Part shown: one piece after another, positions 4,289 through 63,521 of the stretch
Layout of the letters: each line of letters begins with the position of its first letter
Numbering within the stretch: position 1 is the stretch's first letter
Assembly (NCBI GenBank): GCA_951812625.1
Contig: CATOSP010000001.1
Location: forward strand, 200,065-264,064
Source of the DNA: an uncultured Dehalococcoidia bacterium
GTDB taxonomy: Bacteria; Chloroflexota; Dehalococcoidia; Lucifugimonadales; UBA3495
Direction of reading: 5' to 3'
DNA length: 64,000 nt
Made by a program: the position numbers and the translations under genes
The notes under the pieces: generated by a model
The model's input: only the letters and a program-made list of their open reading frames with translations
Told to the model about the DNA's origin: nothing
The model's database searches: none

Positions 4289-4350
4289 CCTCCACGGGTC
4301 GGATACAGACTAAACCCGGCTGTGGTGTAATTCCCACTGCAATCCCAAGA

Positions 4351-4664
4351 CACCAACCCACACCACTGACACTTGCCCCTTTCAAACCCGGACCCGCTAC
4401 CCTATCATATCCTCACGGGACTCGACCGGAGTGATGGGAACTTCGGGGGAATGTACCTGTCACGCGCAAACCGGCCAACACGAGGAAACTAATGAAAACG
4501 TCCGTACATGACAGGAAACACTTCGCTTTCCCCGACAGCGGGCGCCGGATCCCCGGAAGCAAATGAGAGGCTGCAAACGTGAAATCAACGGGCCAAATGT
4601 CCGCAAATGTCCGGATATGACCGGAAAATTGGAATTTTCCCCCGGCAGTCCGTCAACCCGGGAC
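4351..4664 (+). repeat. Dispersed repeat family, copy B
   Basis: See copy A. It has the same conserved TTTCAA-N17-TATCAT block at 4380-4408 and the same 3' blocks. Confidence 0.6.
4597..4626 (+). promoter_or_regulatory. Three tandem 10-bp units (iteron/operator-like)
   Basis: ATGTCCGCAA ATGTCCGGAT ATGACCGGAA, 91 nt upstream of the ATG at 4717. Confidence 0.45.
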
Positions 4665-5873: not shown

Positions 5874-6036
5874 AATCCACAGCATGGCCCCTGTTATTTC
5901 TCTAACATTAGGTCAACCCGGAATAATTCCCGTTTCCGAACATCACAAGGACATTTGCAAACAGGACTGCAAACTTATTGACGCGGATTGACCACGAGAT
6001 GTACCATATTCGTAACCAATAGAAGGAGAGGATACT

Positions 6037-6303
6037 ATGGCACAGGCAGCTTTTGTTCCCGGCGCGGAAGACATTGTCATCCCGGTGGTTTGTCGCCATC
6101 ACTGGGTTATCCAGCCCGCCAACGGCCCCGAAAGCCAGGGTGAGTGTCAGGTCTGCGGCGAGGTCAAGTCCTTCAAAAACCACGTCGAAAACGGCTCTTG
6201 GGGCGACATTCGTCTCAATCCCCCCACCGCCATCGACCAGATCCGGGACCAGCGAAGGTCAATTATGATGGACGAGCAAGAGGACTTCGAGGAAGGGGAC
6301 TAG
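6037..6303 (+). CDS. Small Cys-containing protein (88 aa), unknown function
   Basis: GAAGGAGAGG RBS before the ATG. It contains CRHH...CQVCGE (a putative Zn site) and an acidic tail. Confidence 0.55.
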   Translation: MAQAAFVPGAEDIVIPVVCRHHWVIQPANGPESQGECQVCGEVKSFKNHVENGSWGDIRLNPPTAIDQIRDQRRSIMMDEQEDFEEGD

Positions 6304-6363
6304 CAAGGCTCACGGATTCGCCTTCGCCTCCTCTCCTCCCCCGAAATCCCAGCGTCAATCACG

Positions 6364-6419
6364 CCCCCGTGCAGGGCCAGCCAGGAAACAATCTGGCCTC
6401 GCACGGGGGCTTTCTTATC
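6364..6419 (+). terminator. Long hairpin plus T-rich tail
   Basis: CCCCCGTGC...GCACGGGGG followed by CTTTCTTAT. Confidence 0.5.
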
Positions 6420-6577
6420 CCCGGAGCATCCCCGCACTACCCATGCGCTGCTCCTCCGCGGGCCGATTTGTGGTAGCAAATCCCGACCGGATTACCAGAT
6501 ATTGTAGTTTATGTCTACTCCAGCCTTGACAGCTACCTATCGGGGTAGGGCTATAATGTCCCTTCCCGGAGGTTTAG

Positions 6578-39317: not shown

Positions 39318-40472
39318 CTAGGATTGATCTGTCGAGCGGCGTTCCCCGATCACTACGAAGCCGTGTGGGTTCATCAATCGATATGTCCGGCCATTCCGAT
39401 GGATGTCACCATTCACGCTGATTTCAAGGCTATCACGAAAAGCGCGCACAACTTCCTCTCGGTCTGAAATTTCAAACTGGACATGCAACGCAACGGGCCG
39501 ACCATCAAGTTCGAACAACACCAGTGAATGACCGTCGAACTCTTCCTGAGATTCACGGTCCAGCCGGACTATTTCACCGGTTACATGTGCATCAAGAAAC
39601 GGACTGTTTCGGCGTAAGAACTCCGCTCCTTCTGTGAACACGTCAGCCGCGCTTTCCGTAAATGCATACTCGCCGCCGGGGACCTCGGCAGGTCGCACCT
39701 CTGCCCACGACAAGCTGATCCCGATGCCGCTTCCACAACGTGCCAGAGCTGCTACCGCATCATAGAGATTGGCATTGACGGCTTGAGGTGTCCCTCGGTC
39801 AATGACTTGCGAAATCCGCTCACCGGCGAAAATCGCCTCAGCAGTTCTACTAGCCTCACGTAATCCGGCGTCAAGGGCAATGGTAACGCGACGAGCGAAA
39901 GGTGCCCGAATGGGGTCGCCCATATCCAACTGGACTCCGTACCCGGACTGCACATGGGAATGCAGTATCAACTCAGGTCCAGCCTCATATCCGGGCAATG
40001 GCCGGACTCTCTGCACGTACTCCGTCACTTCCCCACTGGCTCTGCCACGATACACTGGCTGGCCGGGGCGTTCAGCGGCGCGAGCCGCTGCGGTCATGAG
40101 GTCACGGGAACGTGTGAGAAAATCCACGCTGTCGCCCAGGGTCCAGCCAGATTGACCGACCCCGTTCAGCGGTCGCAATCGAATGACATCAGCTCCAGCA
40201 CCGAGTAGGTCGTAGTAGACGTCAATCTCGGAACGCTCTTCTACCTCGGCGAGTAACGATACAGCTTCGGAAACCCGCACGGCATAGGCGTCGGATTGTT
40301 CCCGCAGCGGCATCAATATCTCTCTGTATTGGCCATTGTGTCTACCTGACCACACAACAATCCGGTCTCGCCACACCTGTTCATCAACCCACTCGTGGGC
40401 ATCAAGGTAGGCACGTAGCATGGTGGGGGACACGCGCCTCAGTGCCCTGGCGTCCTTAATTTGTACATCCAT
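39318..40472 (-). CDS. Unknown protein (385 aa from MDVQIKD), downstream partner of the DUF4365 gene
   Basis: GGAGG RBS 6 nt before the ATG at 40472, 11 nt after the DUF4365 stop. No motif recognised. Confidence 0.55.
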   Translation of the reverse strand: MDVQIKDARALRRVSPTMLRAYLDAHEWVDEQVWRDRIVVWSGRHNGQYREILMPLREQSDAYAVRVSEAVSLLAEVEERSEIDVYYDLLGAGADVIRLRPLNGVGQSGWTLGDSVDFLTRSRDLMTAAARAAERPGQPVYRGRASGEVTEYVQRVRPLPGYEAGPELILHSHVQSGYGVQLDMGDPIRAPFARRVTIALDAGLREASRTAEAIFAGERISQVIDRGTPQAVNANLYDAVAALARCGSGIGISLSWAEVRPAEVPGGEYAFTESAADVFTEGAEFLRRNSPFLDAHVTGEIVRLDRESQEEFDGHSLVLFELDGRPVALHVQFEISDREEVVRAFRDSLEISVNGDIHRNGRTYRLMNPHGFVVIGERRSTDQS

Positions 40473-40483
40473 ATCAGCCTCCG

Positions 40484-40954
40484 TTACACCAATAGTCGGC
40501 GAAACATATCCGACAGGCCGTCTACGTCGAACACATTGCTCAATGGCACGGAAACCCGGACAGTCCTCACATTCCCTGAAGGTACTCCTCCCATTAGGGA
40601 AACCCAATATGCGCACTTGCGCAGACATAGCTCCTCAAGGCTCTTGACAAGCCATTGAGAGGGATCCTCAGGCATAATGAACAAGATCAAAACTCTGGGA
40701 AGGCCATCGTCTCTCACCAATTGGTTAAAGTTCTCAACCCGCAGGTCATACCTGATTTCCCCGCCCGTGATTTCGTAGTTGGTTGTGGCCTTGAGTTGAA
40801 AGTCAATCTTGTTGATTCCGCGGCCGTAAGATTCAACCGTTCCATCGATACCATGGTCGTCGACCACTGGAACACTCAAGCTATACCCGGCTCGGAAGAT
40901 CACAGCCCTAACAAATGCCCAGGACAGTTGCTCCTGGATAAAGTTGGGAGACAT
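40484..40954 (-). CDS. DUF4365-like restriction-endonuclease-fold protein
   Basis: VVDDHGIDGTVES...IDFQLKAT is a D...(D/E)xK-type core typical of DUF4365. The likely start is MSPNFIQ. Confidence 0.55.
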   Translation of the reverse strand: MSPNFIQEQLSWAFVRAVIFRAGYSLSVPVVDDHGIDGTVESYGRGINKIDFQLKATTNYEITGGEIRYDLRVENFNQLVRDDGLPRVLILFIMPEDPSQWLVKSLEELCLRKCAYWVSLMGGVPSGNVRTVRVSVPLSNVFDVDGLSDMFRRLLV

Positions 40955-48806: not shown

Positions 48807-49089
48807 ATTTGCTCCACCCCGTCATAGCATAATCTCCTGGGTCGGACAAGAAAGCCAACCCAGAAGCCCAGAGATTCTATATGTTATAACGGAGGGAAGC
48901 ACACAAGTTGCAGCTTCGAGTGAGCACGGCGGGAGATTGAAAATAAGAGTGCCGCCAAACAACAATGGCTCTCAACAAGAGCACTCCAAGGAGGAATGAC
49001 CACTGTAGCAAGGCACAGCCCAAGAGAAATCGAGATCAACCAGCACCAATCATTCCAAAATTAACCGCCGCACTCATACACTCATGCGA

Positions 49090-50295
49090 TCACAATACCG
49101 GCAACGGACAAGGCGGCACGTAATCCATGAACCACTTCAAGGAGATCAATCTGTCCTTCTTGTCATACCCCGAAGACTCGGACTCGGAAACGTAGCTGTC
49201 ACCAACGCCCTCCTCCCAGTCCCAGTCATAAATATTGTTCTTGAACAGGACAGCTCCCGAAATCTCGTCCAGCTCCCTCAGCAGTTGATACATCCGCCGA
49301 GGCAAAGGCCGATCAGGGTACATTTCCTTTCCCAGAAAAGCATACCATCTGAGCATCATCACCACCGCCAACAGTTGTTCCTTGGTAACGGTACTCCCAG
49401 CAACCTCGTACTGCTGTACTCGCTTCTCGGGCTCATGGACCCAACGAACACCATATCGCTCCGGCATCTCCAGGACCTTTCGCTCCGGCATTGCATAAGA
49501 GTCCTTCATCTTCTCAGCTTCAACAGCCTCGCACTCCGGGCAACCCGGCATCGGGGACCACTCAGCAAGCTCCTCCGACCGGATTCCTGTCATGCCTCCC
49601 ATCAGCTCCATCCAGCAGCCGTCGCACAGCGATACTTCACCGCACCGCCCTCCCGGGCGATGAACAAACATGCCCACGGAGGAATAACTTCCCTCGGCCA
49701 ATCCAGCAAAATCTCCGCCACATCGAGCACAGTAAACCTCTTTGTCTTTCAGCGCGGACATATTGGCCTCAAACCTCTCTATCCACTCCTCATACTCCCG
49801 CTGCTTCCTAGCGTCACTACGCATGTCCTCACGGATACCAATCTGCGCGATCTCCGACTTCTGAAGCCGCTCCCAAATCGCTGTAATACGCCTTCTCTCG
49901 CGGTCCCGGCAGTTCCCCGGAGCAATATGCGCTCTACCGACAGCGCACCCATCCGGGCTGTCTCCAGTCTCCAGCTCAAAGACATCTATCCCGTGCCCCA
50001 TACAATGGGCCACCTTCTCGACCGGCAGACCTTCAGTGCCAGTAAACAGCAGCCAAGTGGATGGCCTGGTTCCACGCTCCAACAGAATGTCAGGACCGTC
50101 ACCGCTGCTTCCAGGATCCAGCTGCACCGCTGTGACATCAATCAGAATGTTCTCCACGAACCCTACCCCTGTACAACGGCCACAGCACTCCTTAAAGAAC
50201 AGCCAGAACCCCATCTGCTTCCTCCGGCAAGTCTCCAGCCTATTGAAAAGCATCGCCCGGTTAGCAAAACGAGCGATGTTCTCCCGTTCACTCAT
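49090..50295 (-). CDS. Unknown 401-aa Cys-rich protein
   Basis: Natural acidic/basic composition. Cys pairs CCGRC, CARCGG, CDGC and CPEC. The opposite-strand ORF 49084..50349 looks like a shadow. Confidence 0.6.
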   Translation of the reverse strand: MSERENIARFANRAMLFNRLETCRRKQMGFWLFFKECCGRCTGVGFVENILIDVTAVQLDPGSSGDGPDILLERGTRPSTWLLFTGTEGLPVEKVAHCMGHGIDVFELETGDSPDGCAVGRAHIAPGNCRDRERRRITAIWERLQKSEIAQIGIREDMRSDARKQREYEEWIERFEANMSALKDKEVYCARCGGDFAGLAEGSYSSVGMFVHRPGGRCGEVSLCDGCWMELMGGMTGIRSEELAEWSPMPGCPECEAVEAEKMKDSYAMPERKVLEMPERYGVRWVHEPEKRVQQYEVAGSTVTKEQLLAVVMMLRWYAFLGKEMYPDRPLPRRMYQLLRELDEISGAVLFKNNIYDWDWEEGVGDSYVSESESSGYDKKDRLISLKWFMDYVPPCPLPVL

Positions 50296-50450
50296 CTACT
50301 GCTCCAGCATTATTGGTTTCAAAGTCTTCCTGAATGGGCAACAGGATAGCTCAATCGAGCGCGATCCGTTAGAATCAGAACTCCAAGGAAGCGGAATGCA
50401 ATTCCTAAGCATCCAGACAGACCCAATACTCTTCTGGAAACTCATATCTG

Positions 50451-52102: not shown

Positions 52103-52140
52103 AAAAAGAAAAGCCGCCGGCAGAGTCCGGCGACTTTGTT
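52103..52140. terminator. Hairpin with T-runs on both strands
   Basis: GCCGCCGG-CAGAGT-CCGGCGAC. The minus strand continues TTTTCTTTTT and the plus strand TTTGTT. Confidence 0.5.
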
Positions 52141-52619
52141 ATTATAGTAGAAAAGTTGGGCTGGAGGCCCCGATTTAGCTACGAACGCAACTTATGTCCC
52201 TGCCTCAACCCTGTTAGCAGTTTCCTGCACCCAAACCCCAAGATAGCCTAACACTTCCAACTCCTTTCAATAATGGATCGGCTATCGACTAACAAGAGTC
52301 GTCAGGGAGCGGTGGCCGTTGGCAGTCTGGGGTCGGGCCTTCCAGTCCCACCACACTGGACAAAATCAGGAACCTTCACCATCTCGTTCGCTTTAGCCCT
52401 GTAACCGGGCTGGCACCGCCCTGCCAAATGTATGCCCCGCGGGTGTAAATGGGGGTGCCGGGCGCGAATAGAGTGGGTCTGATGCCCCTGTAGCGAAACG
52501 AAGGGCATCGGTCATATACCGTCTCCCCTCACCGCTCCTGCTTCCCCCGAGACCCCATGCCTGCCTTTGCCCGGTCCTGAAGGTCTTGGCATTCCGTTAG
52601 CATAGGGTGCGCGGACAAT

Positions 52620-53225
52620 TCATTGCCTGGCGACGGTCTTCCTCCTTCGTGAGAACTGACGCTCTACTCCGGTGACCCTCATTCGGAAATCCATCATCTG
52701 CCTACTAACCCCAAATTCGTCGCACGCTACATCCTTCGGCCTCTTTTGGGCACTCAATCTCACAAGGGCATCCCTAGGTAGCAACAGGGCGCCAGCGAGC
52801 CAATTTGCCTCTTCTTCGGCAGCCTTGTTAAACCCACGTAAGGCGAGGTTCTCCTGCCCAGCGAAAAACATAGTGCTTGGTTCATGGCCTAGCAAGAGGT
52901 GAGCCAATTCGTGCATCACATCGCTGGAATAGCGACCACGCCGGTGATTTGGGTTTAGGATGATGGCGTCCCGGTTAGCGGCCGATACAGTTATAGCGGA
53001 CCAAGAATCCGGGTCGCTATGCACCAGTTGCGTGACGTCGGCAGGAGCTAATCCAAGGTCTTCGACTGACCAAAGATATACTCCCAAATACGACGCGAGT
53101 TGTTCTGCTGGTAAGGGGGCAGCCGGGTCCAAGCCTAACTCTGCTCGTAGCGAGCGGGACATCTCCTCACAGCGGGTTTTAAAGCCCTTCTCCATCCACT
53201 TCTCCCACCTTTCCAGGTGCATCAT
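52620..53225 (-). CDS. capP: ImmA/IrrE-family Zn metallopeptidase (CapP-like)
   Basis: HELAHLLLGH (HEXXH) and a 201-aa length. It lies immediately downstream of, and overlaps, the XRE gene. Confidence 0.7.
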   Translation of the reverse strand: MMHLERWEKWMEKGFKTRCEEMSRSLRAELGLDPAAPLPAEQLASYLGVYLWSVEDLGLAPADVTQLVHSDPDSWSAITVSAANRDAIILNPNHRRGRYSSDVMHELAHLLLGHEPSTMFFAGQENLALRGFNKAAEEEANWLAGALLLPRDALVRLSAQKRPKDVACDEFGVSRQMMDFRMRVTGVERQFSRRRKTVARQ

Positions 53226-53574
53226 GCAACATCAACTGTGCCCTGAGAATGGCGTTAGCCAGAGCGCCCGCCGTGTTCGGGTCGATCTCGCGATGTGCCT
53301 TCAGGTGCGCAGCAGCGACATGGGTAGGGGTTGTTTCCGTTGATTGGGGCGTAACGTCCAAAAGGGCACCCGGGTCTACACCTAGCCAGCGACATAGTTT
53401 CCCGAAGGTTTGGAGGTCGGGCATTTTGCCTGACTCAATGCGAGAGAGGGTCGGCGCGCTGGTGCCAATTTCGCTCGCCACCGTCCTAAGCCCTCGAGAA
53501 CCCCGTTTTTCACGGACAATGGTTCCTAGGTTCTGTAATGTGACCTTAACCACAGCGCCTCCCGTTCCAGCCAT
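53179..53574 (-). CDS. capH: XRE-family helix-turn-helix regulator (CapH-like)
   Basis: LRTVASEIGTSAPTLSRIESGK is an XRE HTH. The gene is divergent from the CBASS-like operon. Confidence 0.7.
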   Translation of the reverse strand: MAGTGGAVVKVTLQNLGTIVREKRGSRGLRTVASEIGTSAPTLSRIESGKMPDLQTFGKLCRWLGVDPGALLDVTPQSTETTPTHVAAAHLKAHREIDPNTAGALANAILRAQLMLHDAPGKVGEVDGEGL

Positions 53575-53686
53575 GAAACAACGTCTTGACAGCGTAACGT
53601 CTGTTGGGTTAGCCTATGCGTAACCCTAGCAAAACGCTGTTTCACTCGTGGTGATTGGATGATAATCAAGAACCAAGCCGTAGTCA
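53575..53686. promoter_or_regulatory. Divergent control region between the XRE regulator and the patatin gene
   Basis: TTGACA at 53586-53591 with TAGCCT about 18 nt downstream. ACGTCT is repeated at 53582 and 53597, and a related ACGCTGTT sits at 53634. Confidence 0.3.
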
Positions 53687-54667
53687 ATGGTGGTGTTCGG
53701 AGAGCTTGTCGTGTCTAGCTTCGACCGGACAAGGCCACCGACAGTTCCAACAGAGAGCTTCAGCATCCTGGCGGTGGATGGAGGTGGTACGAGAGGGATT
53801 TACGCCGCTCAAATCCTTGCCAAAGTCGAAGATGCTCTCGGGCGGCAGGTCAACGACTGTTTTGACCTTCTCGCTGGGACGAGCACCGGATCCATCATCA
53901 CGGGAGCCGCGGCGTCGGGAGTTCCATTGAAAGAAGTGGTCGCTTTATTCGAGAAAGAATCGCCGCGCATTTTTGGGAAAGCCCGCTTTCCTGCTCGCAT
54001 CTCCGTGTTCTGGCGTAGCCGGTACTCCAGGACGACTCTCGAAAGCGTGCTACAAGAATACCTGCCCCAGGCCGTCCTTCGGGATATATCGACCCCACTG
54101 ATGATAACGAGCGCTGATATAGCCACGGGCGGAGTCCACGTCTTCAAGTCCCGCTACTTGGGCGATCTCGGAGAACCCTATGAGAGGGACGGAGAGGTGC
54201 TCCTCAGCGATGCGATTCTTGCCTCCTGCGCGGCGCCGACCTATTTCGACCCCAAGGCAGTGGGGCCGTATCTGCTGACGGATGGCGGCCTTTGGGCCAA
54301 CAATCCGTCAATCATAGCGTTTACCGAGGCTGTATCAAAATTCAAGAAGGAGGTGGCGGAGGTAAGAGTTTTGTCCGTAGGCACTGGCCACACGACGACC
54401 ATGTACACGAAACGGAGTTCTTGGGGCCTCCTGACCGGATGGGGAGGTAACAAGCTGGTCTCATACACTTTGGGGCTTCAATCACAGGCTTCTACGAACA
54501 TGGCAAAGCTTATTTTAGGCGACCGATACCTGCGTCTTGACCCGGAGATTGACAGCTGGGAATTGGACGATACCAGGCACCTCGCTAACCTAAAAGCTCT
54601 CGCAGAGAGGGATTTCACATACCGGTCCAAAACAATCCTAGACCACATAAGGAGAAACACCGAATGA
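53687..54667 (+). CDS. Patatin-like phospholipase (CapV-like CBASS effector)
   Basis: DGGGTRG oxyanion motif, GTSTGS nucleophile elbow and a DGG catalytic Asp region. Confidence 0.85.
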   Translation: MVVFGELVVSSFDRTRPPTVPTESFSILAVDGGGTRGIYAAQILAKVEDALGRQVNDCFDLLAGTSTGSIITGAAASGVPLKEVVALFEKESPRIFGKARFPARISVFWRSRYSRTTLESVLQEYLPQAVLRDISTPLMITSADIATGGVHVFKSRYLGDLGEPYERDGEVLLSDAILASCAAPTYFDPKAVGPYLLTDGGLWANNPSIIAFTEAVSKFKKEVAEVRVLSVGTGHTTTMYTKRSSWGLLTGWGGNKLVSYTLGLQSQASTNMAKLILGDRYLRLDPEIDSWELDDTRHLANLKALAERDFTYRSKTILDHIRRNTE

Positions 54668-55623
54668 AGCGGGTAGAAGACTTCAACGAATTCCTGTCCA
54701 ACCATGTGAACATCAACCAGTCCCGGTTGGACGATCTGAACGACCATGTCGCGGCTGTGACGACGCACTTGAGTCGGGACTTGGAGTCGTTCAAAAAAGT
54801 GGAGCGCCAAGGCTCCTATGCCTTGCGGATGATTATCAAGCCGAAGGAAAAGAAGGAATACGACGCCGACGTGCTGCTCTTCATGAAGTACCAGCCGGGA
54901 AAGAAACCTGCCGAGTACATCAACGACGCTTACAACTGCCTCCGGCAACACGGCACCTACAAGGACATGGTGCATAGGAAGACCCGCTGCGTGATGGTGG
55001 ATTACGCCGGGGATTTTCACTTGGACATCGTTCCTTGCGTCGAGTTCAACGGCCAACGCTACGTCTGCAACAACAAGACCAACCAGTTCGAAGTCACGGA
55101 CGGAACCGGCTATCGGGACTGGTTCAACCGGAAGACCCAGATCACCAACGGCAATCTCAAGCGAGCCACAAGGGTTCTCAAGTATATGCGAGACCACAAG
55201 GGCAACTTCACCGCCCCTTCGATCCTCCTCACCACTCTTATCGGAATGAGTGTGCAGGACAACGAGGGCGACGCCTGCTTCAAAACCGTCCCCGACACGT
55301 TGAAGACGGTATGCAACCGCATAAACGCTTTCTTGCAGGCCAATCCCAACCAGCCCGAAATACGCAACCCGGTGCTACACCAGGAGACCTTCACGCGGCA
55401 TTGGGACCAGAACAAGTACCGGAACTTCCGGGACAAGTTCAAGATTTACAATGACCAAGTAAACGACGCCTATGATGAGACCGACCCCCAGAAGAGCGTA
55501 CAGAAATGGCAGAAGCTGTTCGGTGAGGACTTCGGCAAGTCGAAGTCCAAGAGCAGCGGAGCGTCTGGCGCCGCGGCAATGGCTGCCACGACCGTAACTC
55601 CCAGGAAGCCTTGGGCGAGATGA
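54664..55623 (+). CDS. SMODS/CD-NTase-type nucleotidyltransferase (putative cyclic oligonucleotide synthase)
   Basis: QGSYALRMIIKP....EYDADVLLF....FHLDIVPC gives the pol-beta GS / DxD / D triad. ATGA overlap with the patatin stop. Confidence 0.75.
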   Translation: MKRVEDFNEFLSNHVNINQSRLDDLNDHVAAVTTHLSRDLESFKKVERQGSYALRMIIKPKEKKEYDADVLLFMKYQPGKKPAEYINDAYNCLRQHGTYKDMVHRKTRCVMVDYAGDFHLDIVPCVEFNGQRYVCNNKTNQFEVTDGTGYRDWFNRKTQITNGNLKRATRVLKYMRDHKGNFTAPSILLTTLIGMSVQDNEGDACFKTVPDTLKTVCNRINAFLQANPNQPEIRNPVLHQETFTRHWDQNKYRNFRDKFKIYNDQVNDAYDETDPQKSVQKWQKLFGEDFGKSKSKSSGASGAAAMAATTVTPRKPWAR

Positions 55624-56252
55624 AACTGCAAGACACTGATCCGGAATGGCTGGCATCAAACTTCCCGGAATTGGATTTCCAGCCGGATGGCCAGCAGATT
55701 ACCGGGGAGCTTCGCTTCTGCGCTGCCTTTGACCGGGACTCAGGCCAACTGAGGTTGGGTGACACCGACGAGCATCGGGCAATTGGCACTTTTCTGTGCG
55801 ACGCGTTCAAGGTAAGGATCGACTTGGGCCATCTGGGAGACAATGGATGGCCCAGGGTCTATGAGGTTGGCGGGCGTTGCATCGACATTGCGGAGCAAAA
55901 TCAATGCGCTATGATTGACCTGCATCTGTTTGAAGATGGAGCTTGCTGCTTAGGTCTGAATTTCGCCACCGACAGGAATCTTACCCTTCACCGGTTTGTG
56001 CTCGAGCTGGTGATTCCCTTCTTTTACCGCCTGTCTTACACCGACCGTAATGGGTTGGCTGCTGCCAAGGACGACCTGTGGGGAGAGTATTTCCACGGGG
56101 ATGCTGGTGTACGCAAATACAAAGAGGAGATTCTCCAACTGGTCGGCAACAATCCTGGTAGAAACGAATCTTGCCCTTGCGGGAGTGGGCTAAAATACAA
56201 GAGATGCCACTTGGACGAAGTAGAAGCAGTTAAACGCCGTTGGTTGCGCTAA
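55620..56252 (+). CDS. SEC-C-motif protein, possibly an E2/UBC-like CBASS accessory
   Basis: C-terminal CPCGSGLKYKRCH. F.V.IDL....GWPRVYEVGG...IDLHLFEDGACCLGL resembles the UBC layout (YP..PP.v.F...HPN...G.iCl). ATGA overlap with the CD-NTase stop. Confidence 0.45.
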   Translation: MKLQDTDPEWLASNFPELDFQPDGQQITGELRFCAAFDRDSGQLRLGDTDEHRAIGTFLCDAFKVRIDLGHLGDNGWPRVYEVGGRCIDIAEQNQCAMIDLHLFEDGACCLGLNFATDRNLTLHRFVLELVIPFFYRLSYTDRNGLAAAKDDLWGEYFHGDAGVRKYKEEILQLVGNNPGRNESCPCGSGLKYKRCHLDEVEAVKRRWLR

Positions 56253-56278: not shown

Positions 56279-59200
56279 GTGACAACATCCACCGTCAACC
56301 CAATACCTTTCCGCCTTGAATCCACCTTCGGAGCCGGCCGAAAATGGACTTCCCAGGCTGGCTCTATTGCTACAGCCTGGGAGTTGCCCGCCTACCATCT
56401 GCTGTGGGCCGGTGACACAACCGCCGAAGGTGAAGTCCGCAGATTGTGGGAGGCGAGAAAGGGCCGCCAAGCCTATCCTGTGGTCCTACTGTCCCCGTCG
56501 GACGATGAAACGAAAGTCAAGGTGGCCGGCCCGCAGGACGCTCGCCCGGTACGGGAATTGCCCGTCGGCCGGGTACTCGACCTGCTGGAAGACAGCCATA
56601 ACCTAGCGGCCCGCGAAGCGGCATCGTTCCTGGCGAGGGAGTTCGCCCGCCTTGAGGAGGCCGTGGTTCCCGGCCTGCGGGTCAAGGACCTGCTCACGCC
56701 TCATTTCCTACGGGAGCGGATGCGCTGGCCCGTGAACCGGGGGCGATTGTCCGGCGCTGTTGAAGGCAAGGGACGCACTGGGAGTATCGCATGGCGCTCC
56801 CTGTTTCAGGAAATGGGTTACCAAGTGGAGCAACTGCCGCAGCGCGGCTACCTGCTCCGGTACGACAACGCTCCGGTTGCCGTCGTACATCCCCACCGCG
56901 ACCCATCCCAGTTCAGCCGTCTCACAGACAACGGGGAACTGCCCGAAGGAATGGTGCTGGCTGACTGCGGGCAGTACGGAGCTCAGTGGGGCGTCCTGGC
57001 AGCATCCGGACGCTACCGGCTTTTCCAGCGGCGGCCTCCGGTCGGCCCGGCTACCGGGCAGCACTTGGAAATAGATACGGCTGAGTTGGAACGGAAAGAC
57101 CGTTTTTATCTTGGCCTTCTTGCGCCGGAATCTCTCAAGGAAGATGGCTGGCTGACCGGGTGGGTTGCGGAAGCGAAGGACTTTGGCGAAGAGTTGCGCA
57201 AGGGACTGGAAGAGCGCCTGATCAAGGACGCGCTACCCAACATCGCCCGGGGCTTGGGCGAGTATCTTGAATCGCTGGGCACCGACTTGAACGACCCTGA
57301 ACAGCTTCGGCAGATTGAAGAGGCGGCGCTGACTCTGGTGTTTCGGTTCATGTTCCTGCTTCACACCGAAGCCCGTGGCTACCTGCCCATTGGTTCGGCG
57401 GCTTACCGACCCCACAGCGCCCGTCAACTGGCCGAGGATTCCCGCCTGGCCGGGTCTTCCCTCAGCCGGAAAGCCACACAACGGTGGGACCGCTTGCGGA
57501 CTCTCGTGCGGATGATTCGAACCGGGGACCGCTCCGCTGGGGTCCCCGCGTACAACGGCAGCCTGTTTGCTGCCGACGGCTTCCCCGGCAGCGCCTTGCT
57601 GGAACGGGCCGAGATTGCCGACGTTTACCTGGCTCCCGCCCTCGTGTCCATCGCCTATGAAACCGATAAGGTCGACTCTCCGGGGTTGGACTACGCCGGC
57701 CTACAAATCGGCCACCTTGGAGCCATCTATGAAGCCTTGCTGACCTTGAGGCTGACCCGTGCACCCGAAGACCTGGCCTACGATTCTAAGCGTGACATGT
57801 TTCGACCCATTCGTTCTGGAGAGAAGCCGGAGCTCACCAAGGCCCAACTCTATTACCAATCGGAGGCGGGCGGGCGCAAGGCTCGGGGAGTTTTTTACAC
57901 CCGCCACGAGTTCGTTAGCCACCTGCTGAATCATTCTCTGTTGCCCGCCCTCGACGACCATTTGGCCGAAATCGGGGAGGTGGCTGACCGGAGTCCCATT
58001 GAAGCCGCGCAGAGGCTCTTTGATTTCTCCGTTGTGGACCCGGCGATGGGCAGCGCCCACTTCCTCACGGCGGCCTTGGATATGATGGCCGACCGTATCG
58101 AGATTTTCCTGGCCGAGGTTGGCGGCTTGCCCGGTATTGCTCAGCAACTCAGCGAGTTGAGTCAGGACAGCGGAGCAGTCTCCCAGCAGCCGGAGGACGG
58201 GGACCTGCTGCGGCGACTCGTCCTAAAACGCTGCATCTACGGCGTTGACCTTTCCCCCATGGCGGTGGAAGTCGCCAATGTCACCCTGTGGCTGGCGTCT
58301 TTCGTCCCTGGTCTGGCCCTCTCCTACCTGGGCAGCAACCTTAAATGCGGCGATGCCCTCATCGGCGTGGCCGACCCTTCCGTTGTCGGGGCCAGCGACA
58401 GCCCCATGTTCACCGGCCAGAACGTGCGTAACGCGATGGAACAAGCGGCCCGGTTGCAACGGGAGCAGGCGGCCATTCCAGACCGTACTCCCGAAGAGGT
58501 CAAACGCTCCGAGGAACTTGGCGCTCAGCGCGACGAGGCTACCGCCGGTCTGCGGTCAGCTTTCGACCTGTGGACGGCGGAACCGCTGGGACTGGACGGC
58601 GCCCGCCATACCCTGGAGACCCACGCGGACTCCATCATCGAAGCTGGCAAACAGTCGGCTGCTGAAGTTACGGATGCGATTGCGGAAGCATCGCATATCG
58701 GCAGCCAATACCGCTTTTTCCACTGGCCCCTGGAGTTACCCAACGTTTTTTACCGGGAACGTGCAGGATTCGACGTGGTTGTGGGCAATCCACCGTGGAA
58801 CGAAATAACCATCGAGGAACTGGCCTTCTACGCGCTGCGTGAGCCAGGACTGCGTGGATTGCCTAATCTAGCTGAAAGAAGAAAGCGCATAGCGCAACTC
58901 GACAAACAAAACCCTGACTGGCGAGAGGAGTTTGAGGACCAGCAGAGACAATTGAAAACAGTCCGGGGGTTCTTTTCAGAAAGCGGGGGATACCAGCTTC
59001 AAGGAGTAGGCGACAAAGATCTGTACCAACTCTTTTGCGAGCGGTACAGCCATCTCGTTAGGCAGGATGGTCGTTTAGGAGTAGTGCTACCCAGAACGGC
59101 ATTCCTTGCAGAAGGTGCCAAGGGTTTCAGGAGATGGTTGTATGAGCGGACCACGGTAACGACGGTCGACTTTCTCTTGAATGCTGGGCGCTGGGCGTTT

Positions 59201-60262
59201 GATATGGAACCTCGGTACACAGTTGCACTGTTGACTGCTCAACGCAGAACACCAAGCAAGGAAGCCACTTTCCAAATAACAGGACCTTCCGCAAACCTCA
59301 AAGAGTTCCATGATGCGTCACTCGGCCAAGGCGTAAGCGTTCCGGCGTCCTCCTTGGGAAGCGCCCGGGTAGTGCCTCTGTTGCCAAGCCAGATGCACGC
59401 CGATGTGTTAGCCAAATTACGTCGCGGCGTCCAGTTCGATTCGCTCCAAAATCCCGAAAATCAAAAAATTTCAAAAGGGCGCGCTGCTGTGTCTCATCTA
59501 GCTCCCTATACGGAATTGCATGAGACACAGCAGCGCGCCCTTTTCTCTCATTCCAGAGGTTTTCCAGTGTGGAAGGGCCGGTCCTTTGATCAGTACGAGC
59601 CTCATGGTAATGAACCTGCCGGGTACTCCAAGTGGAATGAGGTCCTTTCTTGGGCACAACAGAAGCGCAAGCGATCCCCCGTCTTCAAGCGGATGTTCTC
59701 CACCGAAGAACTTTCCGATCCTAATACCCACCCAATAAACTACTGCCGAGTCGCATTCCGGGATGTGACACGAACCACCGACTCCCGAACAGTAAGAGCC
59801 TGCTTGGTTCCACCACGGACGCCGTTAACCAACAAAGGACCGTACTTGATATTTTCTGGGTGGAGCAGTTTGGCACAGGCCAGCGTCTTGGGGACTTTGA
59901 ACAGCCTTCCGTTTGACTGGATTGCCCGGCGTTACGTTGAAACGAACATGAACTACTTTATTTTGAATATGCTCACCTTCCCACCGCCAGCTAACACTCC
60001 TTGGCAGGGCATCGGCAGATTGGCAGCACGGCTGTCCTGCGTGGACGAGCGGTTCGCTGACTTTGCGGCGGAGACCGGAGTGCAGTGCGGGCCGTTGACC
60101 GATGCCGACCGCAACGACAAGCGGGCGGAAATCGACGCACTGGTGGCTCACGCCTACGGGCTGACCGAGGACGAACTGCGGTTCATATTCACCGACTTCA
60201 CCGAGAACGCTGTTACTCCCGCCTACCGGGAGAAAGTCTTGGAATGGTTCGAGCGTTTGTAA
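56279..60262 (+). CDS. Large N6-adenine DNA methyltransferase of the Eco57I / MmeI / PglX-like (type IIG / BREX / DISARM-MI) kind
   Basis: AYNGSLF, GVFYTRHEFV, VVDPAMGSAHFL (motif I, about nt 58034), IYGVDLSPMAVEVA and FHWPLELPNVF...FDVVVGNPPW (motif IV at nt 58787-58798). About 340 aa of the N-terminus are unassigned. Confidence 0.8.
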   Translation: MTTSTVNPIPFRLESTFGAGRKWTSQAGSIATAWELPAYHLLWAGDTTAEGEVRRLWEARKGRQAYPVVLLSPSDDETKVKVAGPQDARPVRELPVGRVLDLLEDSHNLAAREAASFLAREFARLEEAVVPGLRVKDLLTPHFLRERMRWPVNRGRLSGAVEGKGRTGSIAWRSLFQEMGYQVEQLPQRGYLLRYDNAPVAVVHPHRDPSQFSRLTDNGELPEGMVLADCGQYGAQWGVLAASGRYRLFQRRPPVGPATGQHLEIDTAELERKDRFYLGLLAPESLKEDGWLTGWVAEAKDFGEELRKGLEERLIKDALPNIARGLGEYLESLGTDLNDPEQLRQIEEAALTLVFRFMFLLHTEARGYLPIGSAAYRPHSARQLAEDSRLAGSSLSRKATQRWDRLRTLVRMIRTGDRSAGVPAYNGSLFAADGFPGSALLERAEIADVYLAPALVSIAYETDKVDSPGLDYAGLQIGHLGAIYEALLTLRLTRAPEDLAYDSKRDMFRPIRSGEKPELTKAQLYYQSEAGGRKARGVFYTRHEFVSHLLNHSLLPALDDHLAEIGEVADRSPIEAAQRLFDFSVVDPAMGSAHFLTAALDMMADRIEIFLAEVGGLPGIAQQLSELSQDSGAVSQQPEDGDLLRRLVLKRCIYGVDLSPMAVEVANVTLWLASFVPGLALSYLGSNLKCGDALIGVADPSVVGASDSPMFTGQNVRNAMEQAARLQREQAAIPDRTPEEVKRSEELGAQRDEATAGLRSAFDLWTAEPLGLDGARHTLETHADSIIEAGKQSAAEVTDAIAEASHIGSQYRFFHWPLELPNVFYRERAGFDVVVGNPPWNEITIEELAFYALREPGLRGLPNLAERRKRIAQLDKQNPDWREEFEDQQRQLKTVRGFFSESGGYQLQGVGDKDLYQLFCERYSHLVRQDGRLGVVLPRTAFLAEGAKGFRRWLYERTTVTTVDFLLNAGRWAFDMEPRYTVALLTAQRRTPSKEATFQITGPSANLKEFHDASLGQGVSVPASSLGSARVVPLLPSQMHADVLAKLRRGVQFDSLQNPENQKISKGRAAVSHLAPYTELHETQQRALFSHSRGFPVWKGRSFDQYEPHGNEPAGYSKWNEVLSWAQQKRKRSPVFKRMFSTEELSDPNTHPINYCRVAFRDVTRTTDSRTVRACLVPPRTPLTNKGPYLIFSGWSSLAQASVLGTLNSLPFDWIARRYVETNMNYFILNMLTFPPPANTPWQGIGRLAARLSCVDERFADFAAETGVQCGPLTDADRNDKRAEIDALVAHAYGLTEDELRFIFTDFTENAVTPAYREKVLEWFERL

Positions 60263-60263
60263 G

Positions 60264-63200
60264 ATGACTACTCGCCAGCCCCGGTTTACCCCCCTCGGCA
60301 GTTCTTACGAACTGGTCGATAACGATGTCTTCGGCTCCCACGAACAGGCGTTGGAGTGGCTGGCGAACACCTATGTCGATCCCCTCAACGTCGCCACCGG
60401 ATACGTCAGTCTGGAAGGGCTGGACGCACTGGCGAAGATAGTGACCGGCAGGGTCGGCGGAGGCAGGCTCCTTATCGGGGCAACCCCCTTGTCCGAGAGC
60501 CTAATTGGTCCGGTAAGCGAGACCATAGCCGGGCGGCTTGAACAATCGGTGAGTTCGCTGGGGCGGCAGCGGGACTTCTCGGCCTTTCCTGCCGCCCGCC
60601 GGGCTGTCCTGGAGCGGGTGACAGGTTTCATCGAGGCCGGGAACGTTGAGGTTAAACGGTACGCCAGGGGCTTCCTGCACGGCAAGGCGTACATCTTCGG
60701 CGATTTCGAAGGCAGGACCATCGGGACCGGCGCGGCCCTGGTTTCTTCGGCCAACCTCACCTTCGGCGGCTTGGTGTCCAACCGGGAACTGGGCATGGTT
60801 CACTACCAGCCCAACGTGGTGGCGATGGCGTTGGACTGGTATCAGCGCTTGTGGGATGACGCCTTGGATTTTCGGGAAGGGTTGCTGGAACTGCTGCGAC
60901 CTCCGTTACTGGAGAGCGATCCGCAAACCGTGTTCCTGCGGGCTCTGCTGGAACTTTACCAGAGCGACTTAGATGACGCTGAAGTTGACCTTCCCGACCT
61001 CCACACGCTTACCGCTTTCCAACGGGACGGGTTGGCGCGGGCCAAACGCATTCTGGATCAGCACGGCGGCGTCCTTTACGCCGACGGCGTGGGCATGGGT
61101 AAGACCGAGATCGGCGTCCAGTTCATCCGGGAGTACATTCGGGACCGTGGGCAATACGCTCTGGTAATCTCCCCGGCACAGTTGCGGGACCACCTGTGGG
61201 ACCAGCGCCTGAGCGAAGAGAACGTCCGCACAACCGTGGTTTCCTATCAACAGTTGGCCCAAGACCGCCAACTCGTCGCTCGCGGCGGGCGACAAGTCTT
61301 ACCGGTAGATAAGGACTCATACCGGTTGGTCGTAATTGACGAGGCACACGCCTACCGCAACGTGGACAACACCTGGTACGCGGCACTGGACCGCCTCATG
61401 GGAGGTACGCCGAAGAAGCTGCTCCTTTTGACCGCCACGCCGGTCAACAACTCCCTGTGGGATCTGCACAACCTCTTCCTACTATTCGCACGCCACGACA
61501 GCGCCTTCAGTGGGGAACCACTGAGGATTTCCAGCTTGCGGAAGTTCTTTACCGACGCCGGCGCGTCCAGGACTGAAAACCTCTCTGAGGCCAAGCTGTT
61601 CCCTTTGGTCGACGCTCTGACGGTGCGGCGTGACAGGGCTTTTATCAAGGACCGCTACCGGAACGAGCGATTCATTGACGGAACGCCAGTCAAGTTCCCC
61701 GAACCGGAACTGCATGAGCGCCGTTATGACTTGGACAACGCCCATCCCGGAATCGTCCAGGCCATTTACGACGGGATAGACGGTCTGACAATGGCCCGTT
61801 ATCGCCTGTCAGCCTATAGGGTAGACAAACAGGAAGAGTCAGCGTCGGAAGAAGCGCTGGCCGGTTTGATACAGTCCCAATTGCTGAAACGCTTCGAGTC
61901 GTCCTGGTATGCGGCGCTGCAAACCGTGAACAGGATGCGAGATGGCAACGACGTGCTGCTACGTGTTATCAGAGAGCGGGGAGTTGTGCCGCCTCCGGAG
62001 GTCATCAGGGACTTGGTTGGCGATTCCAGAGAGGATGACACCTTCCTTAGCACCGACCTGATTGACGAGGCATTGGCCGACTCCGAGGGCGGGATTTCCG
62101 CTGACAAGTTCAACGACCATTTCTTGCCAGACTTGGAAAGAGACCGGGATGCCCTGGCAGCCATGTCAATACAGTTGGAGCACTTGGAGGGCAGACCCGA
62201 TCCCAAGCTGGATACCCTCACAGAGGTAATGTCCGCGACGCCCTCCCAGAAGATAGCGGTGTTCACAGCTTTCCAGGACACCGCCACCTACTTGAAGGAG
62301 CAAATCGAGAGTCAACCGGAAGTGTTAGGGCACCGTAATTGGACGGTGGTGATTGGTTCCGAGACCAGTGCCGATGCCCGTACCAGGGAGCTTGAAAGGT
62401 TCTGCCCGGAGTCGGTCACGGACGAGCCGGGCTTTGTGCCTGAAAACGGCGAAGTGGACGTAATCATCAGCACCGACATCCTCTCGGAGGGGCAGAACCT
62501 TCAGCAAGCCCAAGCTGTACTCTCTTTTGACATGCCCTGGAACCCCCAGCGCGTAGTGCAGCGCAATGGCCGCATCATCCGCCTGCGCAGCCCCCACGAC
62601 ACCGCGTACCTCTACACTCTGCTTCCCGAACAGGGGGACCTGGACCGACTGTTGAGACTGGAGGCCAAGCTCCAGGCAAAAATTATGGCAGCGAACGCGT
62701 CAGTGGGTATGGAAACTCCGGTGTTGGCCGACGTAGAAACCGAATCTCAAGTGTACGCTGATCTGAACACTTTTGTAGAACGTCTTGCCAGTGGAGACAC
62801 GACCCTGCTGGACGAGCAGGAAAGCAGCGGGGAGAGCGGTTCGGCGTTTGCGGGTGAACTATTCCGCTCCCATCTTCGCCGGGCGGCCGAGGAAGGCGAA
62901 GTGGACCGGCTCCAGAGCTTGCCCTGGGGCATCGGAGCCGCTTTCGTTCAACGACTGCCGTCACTGGCGGAGCCTGCGGTGTTCTTCGCCTGCCGCACTC
63001 GTGGCGATGAACGCTACTGGCGCATGGTGTCCCAATCAGGAGAAATCCTGCACCGGGATGACTTACCGATGCTCCGCTTGATAGACCCCCAGCAACAACC
63101 TGGCATTCCTGTCCCCGATGGTCTCGACCTGGAGCATCTGTTTACGGTTGCTGCCGACGACATCTGCGCCGAGCATAACGCGCTGCTCGACCCTGAAACG

Positions 63201-63521
63201 CGGTTCGCTTCCCTTCCGGCCAGCCAGCGTTGGGCGCTGGACGTATTACGTTCACCGGACGCTCCATCCGGCGATGAGTACGACGAGGGAGACCAAGCCC
63301 TTTCGGTAGGCCGGAACAACCTAGTCAGGCGTCAGTTATCCGAACTGCGGCGGGAGTACGAAGGTGGCGGCATGAGCGTGACTGACTGTGCTCGTCGGAT
63401 CACAGAAGTAGTCGCACAGTTCGGACTGCGCGTGGTGGGACTTCCCCAAGCTCCCGAACCTATAACTGAGGACGACCTTGGAGTCGTCTGCTACCAGGTG
63501 GTGGTGCCGTCGAGAATGTAG
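60264..63521 (+). CDS. PLD-nuclease / SNF2-family helicase fusion
   Basis: LHGKAYIF...SSANLT is a single HKD motif (about nt 60678-60761). SNF2 motifs are DGVGMGKT, VIDEAHAYRN, LLLTATPVNNSLWDL, SEGQNLQ and QRNGRIIR. The start lies 1 nt after the MTase stop. Confidence 0.8.
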   Translation: MTTRQPRFTPLGSSYELVDNDVFGSHEQALEWLANTYVDPLNVATGYVSLEGLDALAKIVTGRVGGGRLLIGATPLSESLIGPVSETIAGRLEQSVSSLGRQRDFSAFPAARRAVLERVTGFIEAGNVEVKRYARGFLHGKAYIFGDFEGRTIGTGAALVSSANLTFGGLVSNRELGMVHYQPNVVAMALDWYQRLWDDALDFREGLLELLRPPLLESDPQTVFLRALLELYQSDLDDAEVDLPDLHTLTAFQRDGLARAKRILDQHGGVLYADGVGMGKTEIGVQFIREYIRDRGQYALVISPAQLRDHLWDQRLSEENVRTTVVSYQQLAQDRQLVARGGRQVLPVDKDSYRLVVIDEAHAYRNVDNTWYAALDRLMGGTPKKLLLLTATPVNNSLWDLHNLFLLFARHDSAFSGEPLRISSLRKFFTDAGASRTENLSEAKLFPLVDALTVRRDRAFIKDRYRNERFIDGTPVKFPEPELHERRYDLDNAHPGIVQAIYDGIDGLTMARYRLSAYRVDKQEESASEEALAGLIQSQLLKRFESSWYAALQTVNRMRDGNDVLLRVIRERGVVPPPEVIRDLVGDSREDDTFLSTDLIDEALADSEGGISADKFNDHFLPDLERDRDALAAMSIQLEHLEGRPDPKLDTLTEVMSATPSQKIAVFTAFQDTATYLKEQIESQPEVLGHRNWTVVIGSETSADARTRELERFCPESVTDEPGFVPENGEVDVIISTDILSEGQNLQQAQAVLSFDMPWNPQRVVQRNGRIIRLRSPHDTAYLYTLLPEQGDLDRLLRLEAKLQAKIMAANASVGMETPVLADVETESQVYADLNTFVERLASGDTTLLDEQESSGESGSAFAGELFRSHLRRAAEEGEVDRLQSLPWGIGAAFVQRLPSLAEPAVFFACRTRGDERYWRMVSQSGEILHRDDLPMLRLIDPQQQPGIPVPDGLDLEHLFTVAADDICAEHNALLDPETRFASLPASQRWALDVLRSPDAPSGDEYDEGDQALSVGRNNLVRRQLSELRREYEGGGMSVTDCARRITEVVAQFGLRVVGLPQAPEPITEDDLGVVCYQVVVPSRM

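Follow-up and report, generated by a model that had tools for sequence, protein, structure and literature searches.

CapH and CapP are a DNA-damage-responsive pair that represses cyclic oligonucleotide-based antiphage signalling systems (CBASS) (Lau et al., 2022; 10.1101/2022.04.27.489752). The same survey found capH and capP beside 408 CBASS systems. Among the rows of its Table S1, 141 are 'Type II short', many of them having a phospholipase as the effector; the table further includes 15 CapH-CapP fusions and 23 'Minimal CapP' entries, and contains no Chloroflexota; CapH/CapP-like pairs were also described beside Bil-type ('6e') operons (Lau et al., 2022). Here, we describe a locus of this kind from an uncultured Dehalococcoidia bacterium of the phylum Chloroflexota. 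It occupies positions 52620-56252 of a stretch of 64,000 nucleotides (contig CATOSP010000001.1; the whole stretch is called the window below) and is probably a compact five-gene CBASS cassette of the E2 type (Type II-short) that carries its own repressor/peptidase switch.

CapP of Escherichia coli MS115-1 and Thauera sp. K11, like IrrE, consists of a peptidase domain (residues 1-141), a helix-turn-helix (HTH)-like linker (142-182) and a GAF domain (182-288) (Lau et al., 2022; Calloji et al., 2026, 10.64898/2026.05.16.725639). Single-stranded DNA (ssDNA) sits in the groove between the peptidase and GAF domains of CapP and IrrE, and in 33% of CapPs it displaces a cysteine-switch loop (Lau et al., 2022; Calloji et al., 2026). 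The E2 protein of Serratia is a protease-ligase, which trims the residues after the conserved C-terminal Gly of CdnG and captures this Gly first on a Cys and then on a Lys (PMC12948482; 10.1101/2022.05.25.493364). CdnG, about 400 residues long, recruits E2 through a helix plus three-strand motif that has been described for clades G and H, and about 74% of the cyclases of E2-CBASS belong to clade G (PMC12948482; 10.1101/2022.05.25.493364). The ImmR/ImmA pairs of Bacillus ICEBs1 and phage phi105 and the DdrO/IrrE pair of Deinococcus share the logic of an XRE repressor that is cut by an adjacent M78 peptidase, by which the neighbouring genes are derepressed. ImmA is a short peptidase that is not known to carry a GAF domain.

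Gene content and layout of the cassette

In the list of open reading frames (ORFs), capV, cdn and the E2 gene lie on the plus strand, and the genes for an XRE-family HTH protein and an M78 peptidase diverge from them. The features are as follows (Pfam, PADLOC and NCBIfam denote profile matches; AF2 denotes an AlphaFold2 model).

52620-53195, minus strand: short ('minimal') M78 zinc peptidase, CapP/ImmA-like, 191 aa (Pfam, PADLOC, AF2 model)
53179-53553, minus strand: XRE-family HTH repressor, CapH-like, 124 aa (Pfam HTH_3, orthologue alignment)
53554-53710: divergent control region, 157 bp (conservation across loci)
53711-54667, plus strand: CapV-type patatin phospholipase effector (PADLOC, NCBIfam, Pfam)
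54664-55623, plus strand: cGAS/DncV-like nucleotidyltransferase (CD-NTase; SMODS), 319 aa (PADLOC, Pfam)
55620-56252, plus strand: E2-only Cap2-like protein with a C-terminal SEC-C zinc knuckle, 210 aa, ATG at 55620 (PADLOC, Pfam, AF2 model)
52110-52137, minus strand: terminator-like hairpin with an 11-bp stem and a T-rich tail, about 480 nt downstream of the peptidase gene

An earlier note on this DNA had listed five ORFs, and all of them were present where it had placed them; the patatin, nucleotidyltransferase and peptidase motifs that it quoted (DGGGTRG, GTSTGS, GS...DADV...HLDIV and HELAH) can be read in the translations. It had proposed a three-gene CBASS-like operon with a patatin effector, and matches to PADLOC, Pfam and NCBIfam models far beyond chance agreed with this proposal. 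The third plus-strand gene, which the earlier note had left unnamed, encodes an E2-like protein.

The patatin matched the PADLOC CBASS phospholipase effector (7e-83) and Pfam Patatin (6e-27), and it carries the GTSTG nucleophile elbow and the Asp of the DGG motif. The CD-NTase matched the PADLOC model Cyclase PDLC00793 over its full length (9e-117), Pfam SMODS (3e-31) and DncV-like_NTFase (7e-10), and its catalytic motifs are intact (G50-S51, D67-A-D69 and D120). The full-length cyclase match, together with the SMODS and DncV-like matches, indicated an enzyme of the CD-NTase/SMODS type, as the earlier note had claimed, and not of the MNT/antitoxin type. The nearest solved CD-NTases were BcCdnD of clade D (2e-13), SmCdnG (8e-12, N-lobe only) and BfCdnB (2e-8), all of them distant. 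CD-NTase-like domains with 49% identity to the enzyme of the window were also seen in related genomes within open frames of about 1000 aa, which are large multidomain cyclase fusions (G015:C1:2358372-2359217 and G018:C2:1252144-1252998).

The third protein matched PADLOC E2 PDLC00872 (3e-24) and Pfam SEC-C (2.5e-9). An alignment of 14 orthologues showed an invariant His102 seven residues before an invariant Cys109-Cys110 pair, and the zinc ligands were also invariant. Its AF2 model had a predicted local distance difference test score (pLDDT) of 83.7. The matches of this model in the PDB were almost all of the UBC/E2 fold (UFC1, UBE2S, Cdc34 and UEV domains), with a best probability of 0.97 and weak E-values. 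The system was assigned to Type II-short, or 'E2', CBASS on account of the small size of the E2 protein (only 210 aa) and the absence of an E1 or JAB gene behind it; the gene directly after the E2 gene encodes a methyltransferase.

ATGA overlaps join capV to cdn (54664-67) and cdn to the E2 gene (55620-23). Since such overlaps are typical of translational coupling, capV-cdn-E2 is predicted to be one translationally coupled operon. The capV ORF is open from ATG 53687, and GTG 53711, which follows GGAGAG, is most likely the start.

We compared this core with the CapV-DncV CBASS of Vibrio cholerae and E. coli. Both have the effector gene ahead of the cyclase gene, and the patatin of the window passes the cut-off of NCBIfam NF041079 (CBASS_lipase, 'CBASS cGAMP-activated phospholipase') with 238 bits against 200. 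However, the CD-NTase of the window is distant from DncV. All NCBIfam cyclase equivalogs stayed below their cut-offs for it, the match to the cGAS model being partial and reaching 85 bits against a cut-off of 150. The helper is also different, an E2-only protein in place of an E1E2 protein and a JAB protease.

Related loci were collected by a scan of one genome per species, which gave 21 loci, nearly all in metagenome-assembled genomes of Chloroflexota/Dehalococcoidia. All five genes occur in the same arrangement in nine of these loci (L001-L009), with 72-98% amino-acid identity.

The HTH protein and the M78 peptidase

The HTH protein matched Pfam HTH_3 (4e-8) and also HTH_31. Its orthologues all begin with (M/V/L)-[VA]-KVTLQ and are preceded by GGAGG; the corresponding start in the window is GTG 53553, preceded by GGGAGG, and ATG 53574 is absent in L001 and other loci. 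Because the orthologue start is conserved and the upstream ATG is not, the gene was assigned to 53179-53553, encoding 124 aa. The peptidase ORF is open back to 53225, and the database homologues are all called from the equivalent of M11 (53195) and align from residue 1. A start at M11 gives a protein of 191 aa and an overlap of 17 nt with the HTH gene. The earlier note had described an XRE gene (53179-53574) overlapping a peptidase gene (52620-53225): both genes and the overlap were upheld, but the starts were not, and the overlap is 17 nt instead of 47 nt. Both regulator genes and capV are thus predicted to start downstream of their first-listed ATGs.

The HTH domain is followed by a variable linker and then by a conserved C-terminal block of about 40 aa (AAHLKAxxEIxPxTAxALAxAIxxAQ), which is plausibly the domain for oligomerisation and cleavage. 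A family profile of the HTH protein detected only generic XRE/DdrO HTH domains in the PDB and no CapH entry.

The peptidase matched Pfam Peptidase_M78 (4e-16), and its best PADLOC match was capP (1e-9), covering only positions 8-128 of the 242 in that model. Its features are HELAH with a Glu ligand further downstream, a linker resembling an HTH, and a C-terminal helix whose basic character is conserved in the family. Among the 120 matches listed, the homologues have 155-211 aa, mostly 183-204, and carry only PF06114. A representative search (clusters at 50% identity) gave 648 clusters at E<=1e-10, almost all of 140-211 aa and nearly all matching end to end. The AF2 model (pLDDT 87.7) is helical to its end; it shows a peptidase core, a beta-hairpin (residues 108-121) between the HEXXH and Glu helices, three short helices and the final basic helix. 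Its sole significant fold match in the PDB was IrrE (3DTI; probability 1.0, TM score 0.52 over 175 columns), yet IrrE has a GAF domain. When the family profile was compared with PDB sequences, the best match was Thauera CapP 7T5T with a weak E-value of 0.22. HEXXH, the Glu ligand, an invariant Gly-Arg and the 'yGVS' linker align with this protein, and the Gly-Arg aligns with the ssDNA-contact residue R90 of E. coli CapP. 7T5T continues for about 120 residues past the aligned part, whereas the family of the window ends after 27.

The size of the peptidase, the PF06114-only listed homologues, the helical end of the model and the alignment to 7T5T all indicated that the 191-aa protein has no GAF domain. 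A split-off GAF remnant was looked for in the 860 bp behind the peptidase gene; only one short, unconserved ORF lies there, and homology to the orthologous loci does not reach past the stop codon. The peptidase has a loop as long as the switch loop at the corresponding position, but its residue aligned with the switch Cys is an Ala. With neither the GAF domain nor this Cys, the published mechanism of ssDNA groove and cysteine switch is inapplicable as described. The earlier note had called the peptidase CapP-like. The M78 domain, HEXXH with the Glu ligand and the HTH-like linker support this name, but the C-terminal GAF domain and the switch Cys do not; because of the absent GAF domain, the name is apt as a working analogy and not as strict membership. 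By analogy, the architecture of the peptidase appears to be that of ImmA.

Taken together, the locus shares with CapH/CapP-controlled CBASS an HTH gene followed by an M78 gene, both upstream of and divergent from the CBASS core with a common promoter region, and at the protein level HEXXH plus the Glu ligand, the HTH-like linker and the loop of equal length. It differs in that the peptidase has 191 aa instead of about 288 aa, with no GAF domain and Ala for the switch Cys, and in that the HTH protein's C-terminal region shows no detectable resemblance in sequence to the dimerisation domain of CapH. Furthermore, the characterised E. coli system is a Type III CBASS with a nuclease effector, whereas that of the window is Type II-short with a patatin. 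ImmR/ImmA and DdrO/IrrE differ from the locus in their cargo, since the pair of the window adjoins an anti-phage operon (Bil in relatives) and not genes for excision and transfer or for DNA repair.

These differences bear on what the switch senses. It is possible, though we consider it the less likely case, that the gene identities hold unchanged and the switch is not a sensor of DNA damage or ssDNA. The minimal peptidase would then be activated by another cue, for which a protein partner (RecA or a different one, as for ImmA), a protein of the phage, and redox state or zinc availability acting through the invariant Cys9 or Cys158 come into question; in a variant of this explanation, slow constitutive cleavage of the repressor would merely set basal expression. 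The PF06114-only composition of the listed homologues fits such a cue, as the ssDNA contacts of CapP and IrrE come from both the peptidase and the GAF domain, and Lau et al. named ImmA, which responds to RecA/RapI, as a functional parallel. The invariant residues of the peptidase family include three without an assigned role, C9 (in an RCEE motif), H104 and C158. On the other hand, the Arg that contacts ssDNA from the peptidase side (R90 in CapP; also in IrrE) aligns with the invariant Gly-Arg, the conserved basic C-terminal helix could stand in as a nucleic-acid contact, and the published survey lists 'Minimal CapP' beside canonical entries and suggests no different role for it.

The divergent control region

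Block conservation was assessed across 10-14 loci, including Bil-, HNH- and GIY-linked copies of the pair. The promoters and operators in 53554-53710 are predictions from this conservation. The elements are as follows.

53558-63: Shine-Dalgarno sequence of capH, CCTCCC
53573-80: left arm of an inverted repeat, ATGAAACA
53584-91: invariant TCTTGACA, putative plus-strand -35 element with a TGTC-NN-GACA core (conserved across loci)
53610-15, plus strand: TAGCCT, a -10-like site
53638-45: right arm of the inverted repeat, TGTTTCAC
53664-59, minus strand: promoter-like -10 element, TATCAT
53687-82, minus strand: promoter-like -35 element, TTGACT
53699-704, plus strand: Shine-Dalgarno sequence of capV, GGAGAG

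The ribosome-binding site of capH, (G/A)TGAAAC(A), the invariant TCTTGACA, a CGTAA block and (T)GTTTCAC were conserved even under different cargo, and the sequence nearer the cargo diverges where the cargo operon differs. In every CBASS-linked locus, a spacer of 18 nt separates the plus-strand TTGACA (53586-91) from a downstream TAnnnT hexamer, which is TAGCCT in the window. On the minus strand, TTGACT, a 17-nt spacer and TATCAT form the sole promoter-like site from a consensus scan of the intergenic region (10 of 12 matches), and both hexamers fall in conserved blocks. If both promoters are real, they would stand face to face, with predicted start sites at about 53622 (plus strand) and about 53652 (minus strand) and transcripts overlapping by about 30 nt. 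A scan of 51.5-56.5 kb against Rfam at E<=1 gave nothing, so no known RNA family accounts for the conserved leader.

The putative plus-strand promoter is bracketed by an inverted repeat with the arms GTGAAACA (53573-80) and TGTTTCAC (53638-45); an inverted-repeat scan placed arms at 53574-53599 and 53619-53644. Both arms are changed in the Bil-linked copies, to GTAAAAC and GTAAGAAAC. The putative operator could be narrowed down no further than 53573-53645.

The TGTC-NN-GACA core, which reads TGTC-TT-GACA in the window, overlaps the -35 element. Its symmetry was 3.0 of 7 positions, compared with 0.8-2.3 in shifted controls. The palindrome was not accepted as the operator, for want of covariation within loci (p = 0.59). 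In L002 (about 4905-4925, corresponding to 53577-53596 of the window) the core reads TGTC-AA-GACA within a perfect 16-bp palindrome, CACTGTCAAGACAGTG. This palindrome is kept there although the plus-strand TTGACA is lost, and L002 is the only locus with an AA centre.

The pair was also followed beyond CBASS, by examining contigs of peptidase homologues at about 65% identity (L022-L025). In L023 and L024, the HTH and peptidase genes diverge from a Bil operon (BilA, a ubiquitin-like protein; a BilB-like protein; and BilD), and L024 has the same 17-nt overlap between the two genes as the window. In L022 and L025 the pair adjoins other small nuclease-type genes. All of these copies of the pair have the same, or nearly the same, recognition region in the HTH protein (GTSAPTLSRIESGKMPDL). 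Its position divergent from Bil operons and other cargo marks the pair as a portable regulator, and because blocks of the control region are invariant under different cargo, the pair seems to carry its own outward-facing control region. The claim that the XRE/ImmA pair is transcribed away from the CBASS genes, as CapH/CapP are, was confirmed by the nine CBASS loci, in which this position is kept, and by the Bil loci.

The same data make it improbable that the pair is an autonomous toxin-antitoxin-like or immunity module (an HTH-M78 pair of the RmrA/spr1629 type) that merely sits beside CBASS and does not control its transcription. The peptidase and the HTH protein do give weak PADLOC matches to RmrA, the peptidase gives a weak NCBIfam match to the 'spr1629 family repressor/antitoxin', and the cassette shares its defence island with a type IIG-like methyltransferase, an HKD-SNF2 helicase and a PDC-M02B-like gene. 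However, the RmrA/spr1629 matches lie far under the curated cut-offs (30.8 vs 335 bits) and cover the generic M78 core only. The pair is always divergent from a defence operon with a conserved shared control region (nine CBASS loci and two Bil loci), and the conserved outward-facing TCTTGACA travels with it. No toxin partner gene was found within the conserved block.

Distribution and mobility of the cassette

Nucleotide homology begins at 52602-52645 in all nine loci, within about 25 nt of the peptidase stop (52620). It ends just past the E2 stop in L005, L008 and L009 and runs on through the adjoining methyltransferase gene in L002, L003, L006 and L007. The sharp left edge at the peptidase stop indicates that the regulator pair moves together with CBASS, and not together with the cluster to the left at 47-52 kb. 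The nine-locus synteny, this edge and the terminator-like hairpin (52137-52110) therefore tie the pair to CBASS, as the earlier note had assumed. Control by the pair of the leftward cluster, which encodes small membrane and Cys-rich proteins, perhaps in the manner of an ImmR/ImmA switch of a degraded mobile element, is hardly credible: the cluster does lie downstream of the pair on the same strand, in a region of atypical base composition (about 47-56 kb), but none of the five cluster ORFs tested matched any of the 21 loci, about 860 bp of non-coding DNA with the strong hairpin separates it from the pair, and elsewhere the pair has quite different neighbours on that side.

The more distant loci L010-L016 and L019 contain capV-cdn-E2 without the regulator pair. 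Among these, L013 has a 360-aa HTH-M78 fusion in the same divergent position, plus a cdn-E2 fusion. The cassette was found in none of six other genomes of the same genus that were searched, and a copy with 89-90% identity was found in a different genus; the distribution is patchy. A second copy of the regulator pair was sought in the window's own genome and not found, and the peptidase gene is present there once. From this pattern, we infer that the five genes move as one horizontally mobile, self-contained unit.

No integrase or excisionase gene and no transfer RNA (tRNA) gene was found in the conserved five-gene block. A tRNA scan of the window found none, and no tRNA-linked integration site is therefore evident. 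A search for terminal repeats bounding the cassette gave scattered short shared segments only, with no consistent repeats. Some segments of 30-55 nt (84-93% identity) are common to the left flank of one genome and the right flank of another, as for 52338-52392 of the window and 7650-7703 of L008, and for the left flank of L004 and the right flank of L008; they may be a small dispersed repeat.

Additional cyclase genes were seen in some relatives. L005 has a second, divergent CD-NTase with 50% identity near the cassette (8155-9012, minus strand), and L019 has a second CD-NTase paired with a second patatin gene (2204-4425), so CBASS systems are stacked in some relatives. One genome (OZ250168.1) contains two identical truncated CD-NTase copies (residues 163-319), each with an intact E2 gene (L017 and L018; G032:C1:585180 and 1476928). 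These copies lie about 0.9 Mb apart, and the fragment may ride on a repeated or mobile element.

The C-terminal tail of the CD-NTase and the E2 protein

After its catalytic core, the CD-NTase has about 29 residues, comprising a low-complexity S/G/A linker and a 9-aa motif; the tail in the window is TVTPRKPWAR. For 109 homologues, the motif can be written as V-T-P-R-K-P-(Y/W)-A-x. All 109 have both Pro residues and 100 have the Ala, and exactly one residue follows the Ala in 98 of the 109. A Gly anywhere in the last 12 residues was found in only 18 of 115 CD-NTase sequences.

We then compared the locus with the E2-CBASS of Serratia marcescens (SmCdnG-SmE2). Both have a CD-NTase and a stand-alone E2 without E1 or JAB, and an invariant Cys with a His seven residues upstream. 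However, the CD-NTase of the window has 319 aa instead of about 400 aa and is not demonstrably clade G. Its tail is PRKP(Y/W)A-x instead of Gly, apparently with no room for the E2-binding motif. The E2 of the window also differs in having a SEC-C zinc knuckle; a term search of the main text of PMC12948482 found no mention of SEC-C.

CdnD of Enterobacter cloacae, which is conjugated by the E1E2 protein Cap2, ends in ...GRFA, that is, with an aromatic-Ala conjugation end. In the tail of the window CD-NTase, (Y/W)-Ala may likewise be the conjugation end, with the last residue trimmed. Natural fusions of CD-NTase, E2 and SEC-C (P0060, P0067, P0105 of 557 aa, and L013 at 5995-7638) read ...PRKPYAR straight into the E2 part.

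Proposed mechanism

Several observations weigh against the locus as an E2-type CBASS under a CapH/CapP-like switch. In the regulators, no sequence similarity could be detected between the HTH protein's C-terminal region and the C-terminal/dimerisation domains of CapH or DdrO, and the peptidase has no GAF domain and an Ala at the switch-Cys position. In the core, the neighbours of the CD-NTase are split among clades D, G and B, and all are distant. The enzyme is without the C-terminal Gly reported for E2-CBASS enzymes, and the 29 or so residues behind its catalytic core appear to leave no room for a helix plus three-strand motif of about 47 residues. In the control region, the plus-strand promoter fails the consensus scan because its -10 hexamer is TAGCCT, the number of sites in the promoter scan equals the chance expectation, and the arms of the TGTC-NN-GACA palindrome show no covariation within loci (p = 0.59). 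The earlier note described a 112-bp gap, a TTGACA box (53586-53591) and ACGTCT repeats, of which there are two copies (53581-86 and 53597-602). All of these are present, but the ACGTCT direct repeats were rejected as the operator, being unconserved across loci and without covariation (p = 0.16).

With these points taken into account, we still favour a five-gene E2-type CBASS cassette with its own switch, which would work as follows. The HTH protein would bind the conserved blocks straddling the outward promoter and repress both CBASS and itself. Upon a stress or infection signal, the peptidase would cut the HTH protein in its conserved C-terminal region, presumably somewhere in residues 78-110 of the 124; cleavage would dissolve the HTH oligomer, and the operon would be derepressed. 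The E2 protein may hold or prime the CD-NTase via the conserved C-terminal tail, and it would probably attack the bond of the tail (Y/W)-Ala, whereby the last residue is lost. During phage infection, the CD-NTase would make a cyclic nucleotide that activates the patatin phospholipase, and membrane damage by the patatin would lead to abortive infection.

The signal is the weakest step of this scheme. Because the GAF half of the ssDNA groove is absent, ssDNA sensing is not simply transferable to the peptidase of the window; ImmA-like activation and binding via the basic C-terminal helix are equally possible.

A more far-reaching reading is conceivable, and we hold it to be doubtful. The minimal peptidase (185-205 aa) and the 124-aa HTH protein would form a distinct, portable Chloroflexota cartridge of promoter, operator and regulators for CBASS, Bil and other cargo, which senses infection otherwise than CapP/IrrE. 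At the same time, the short CD-NTase would be captured by the SEC-C E2 via its PRKP(Y/W)A|x tail, instead of a C-terminal glycine and a ubiquitin-like beta-sheet motif, as a second mode of E2-CD-NTase coupling. The sensing element of such a cartridge may be the invariant Cys of the N-terminal RCEE motif or the basic C-terminal helix.

Significance of the locus

The gene combination of the window is already catalogued, since Table S1 of Lau et al. contains Type II-short phospholipase rows with capH and capP, as well as 'Minimal CapP'. The analysis is mostly a confirmation, and it extends Type II-short phospholipase CBASS with CapH/CapP to Chloroflexota/Dehalococcoidia. New here are the phylum and the movement of the five genes as one cassette, and so are two variants that have yet to be characterised. 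One is a GAF-less family of peptidases common to CBASS and Bil; the other is a short cyclase whose tail does not end in Gly and whose partner is an E2-SEC-C protein. The naturally GAF-less family offers a ready-made test of whether the GAF/ssDNA groove is needed for signal sensing. Similarly, the near-invariant PRKP(Y/W)A-x tail and the natural fusions offer a simple test of how E2-only systems without the Gly and, apparently, the E2-binding motif recognise the cyclase.

Genomic surroundings

The cassette sits in a defence island, and the G+C content of about 47-56 kb is lower than that of the flanks. Within this part, 49084-50349 is open on both strands for more than 400 codons (421 aa on the plus strand and 401 aa on the minus strand), with a GC skew of about -0.3; the products of neither strand matched Pfam or PADLOC. 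Further to the left, a 436-aa ORF between metabolic genes (39318-40628, minus strand) has no Pfam match and matched the PADLOC candidate family PDC-M02B (2e-81).

The methyltransferase gene after the cassette (56279-60262) encodes a type IIG/DrmMI-like protein of 1327 aa that matched PADLOC REase_MTase_IIG (5e-116). It is directly followed by the gene for a PLD(HKD)+SNF2 helicase of 1085 aa (60264-63521), which matched PADLOC C3a139 'HKD+Snf2' (8e-49). This methyltransferase-helicase pair follows the cassette in L002, L003, L006 and L007 and not in L005, L008 and L009, and it looks like a defence module in its own right that is often carried along with CBASS. A 72-nt segment inside the methyltransferase gene (59473-59544) has, besides its collinear match, an opposite-strand match in L002 and L003 (100% identity) and in L006 (94% identity), and tblastn likewise gave a reverse-strand match for methyltransferase residues of about 1046-1090. 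The opposite-strand matches suggest an inverted duplicate or an invertible segment in the methyltransferase gene.

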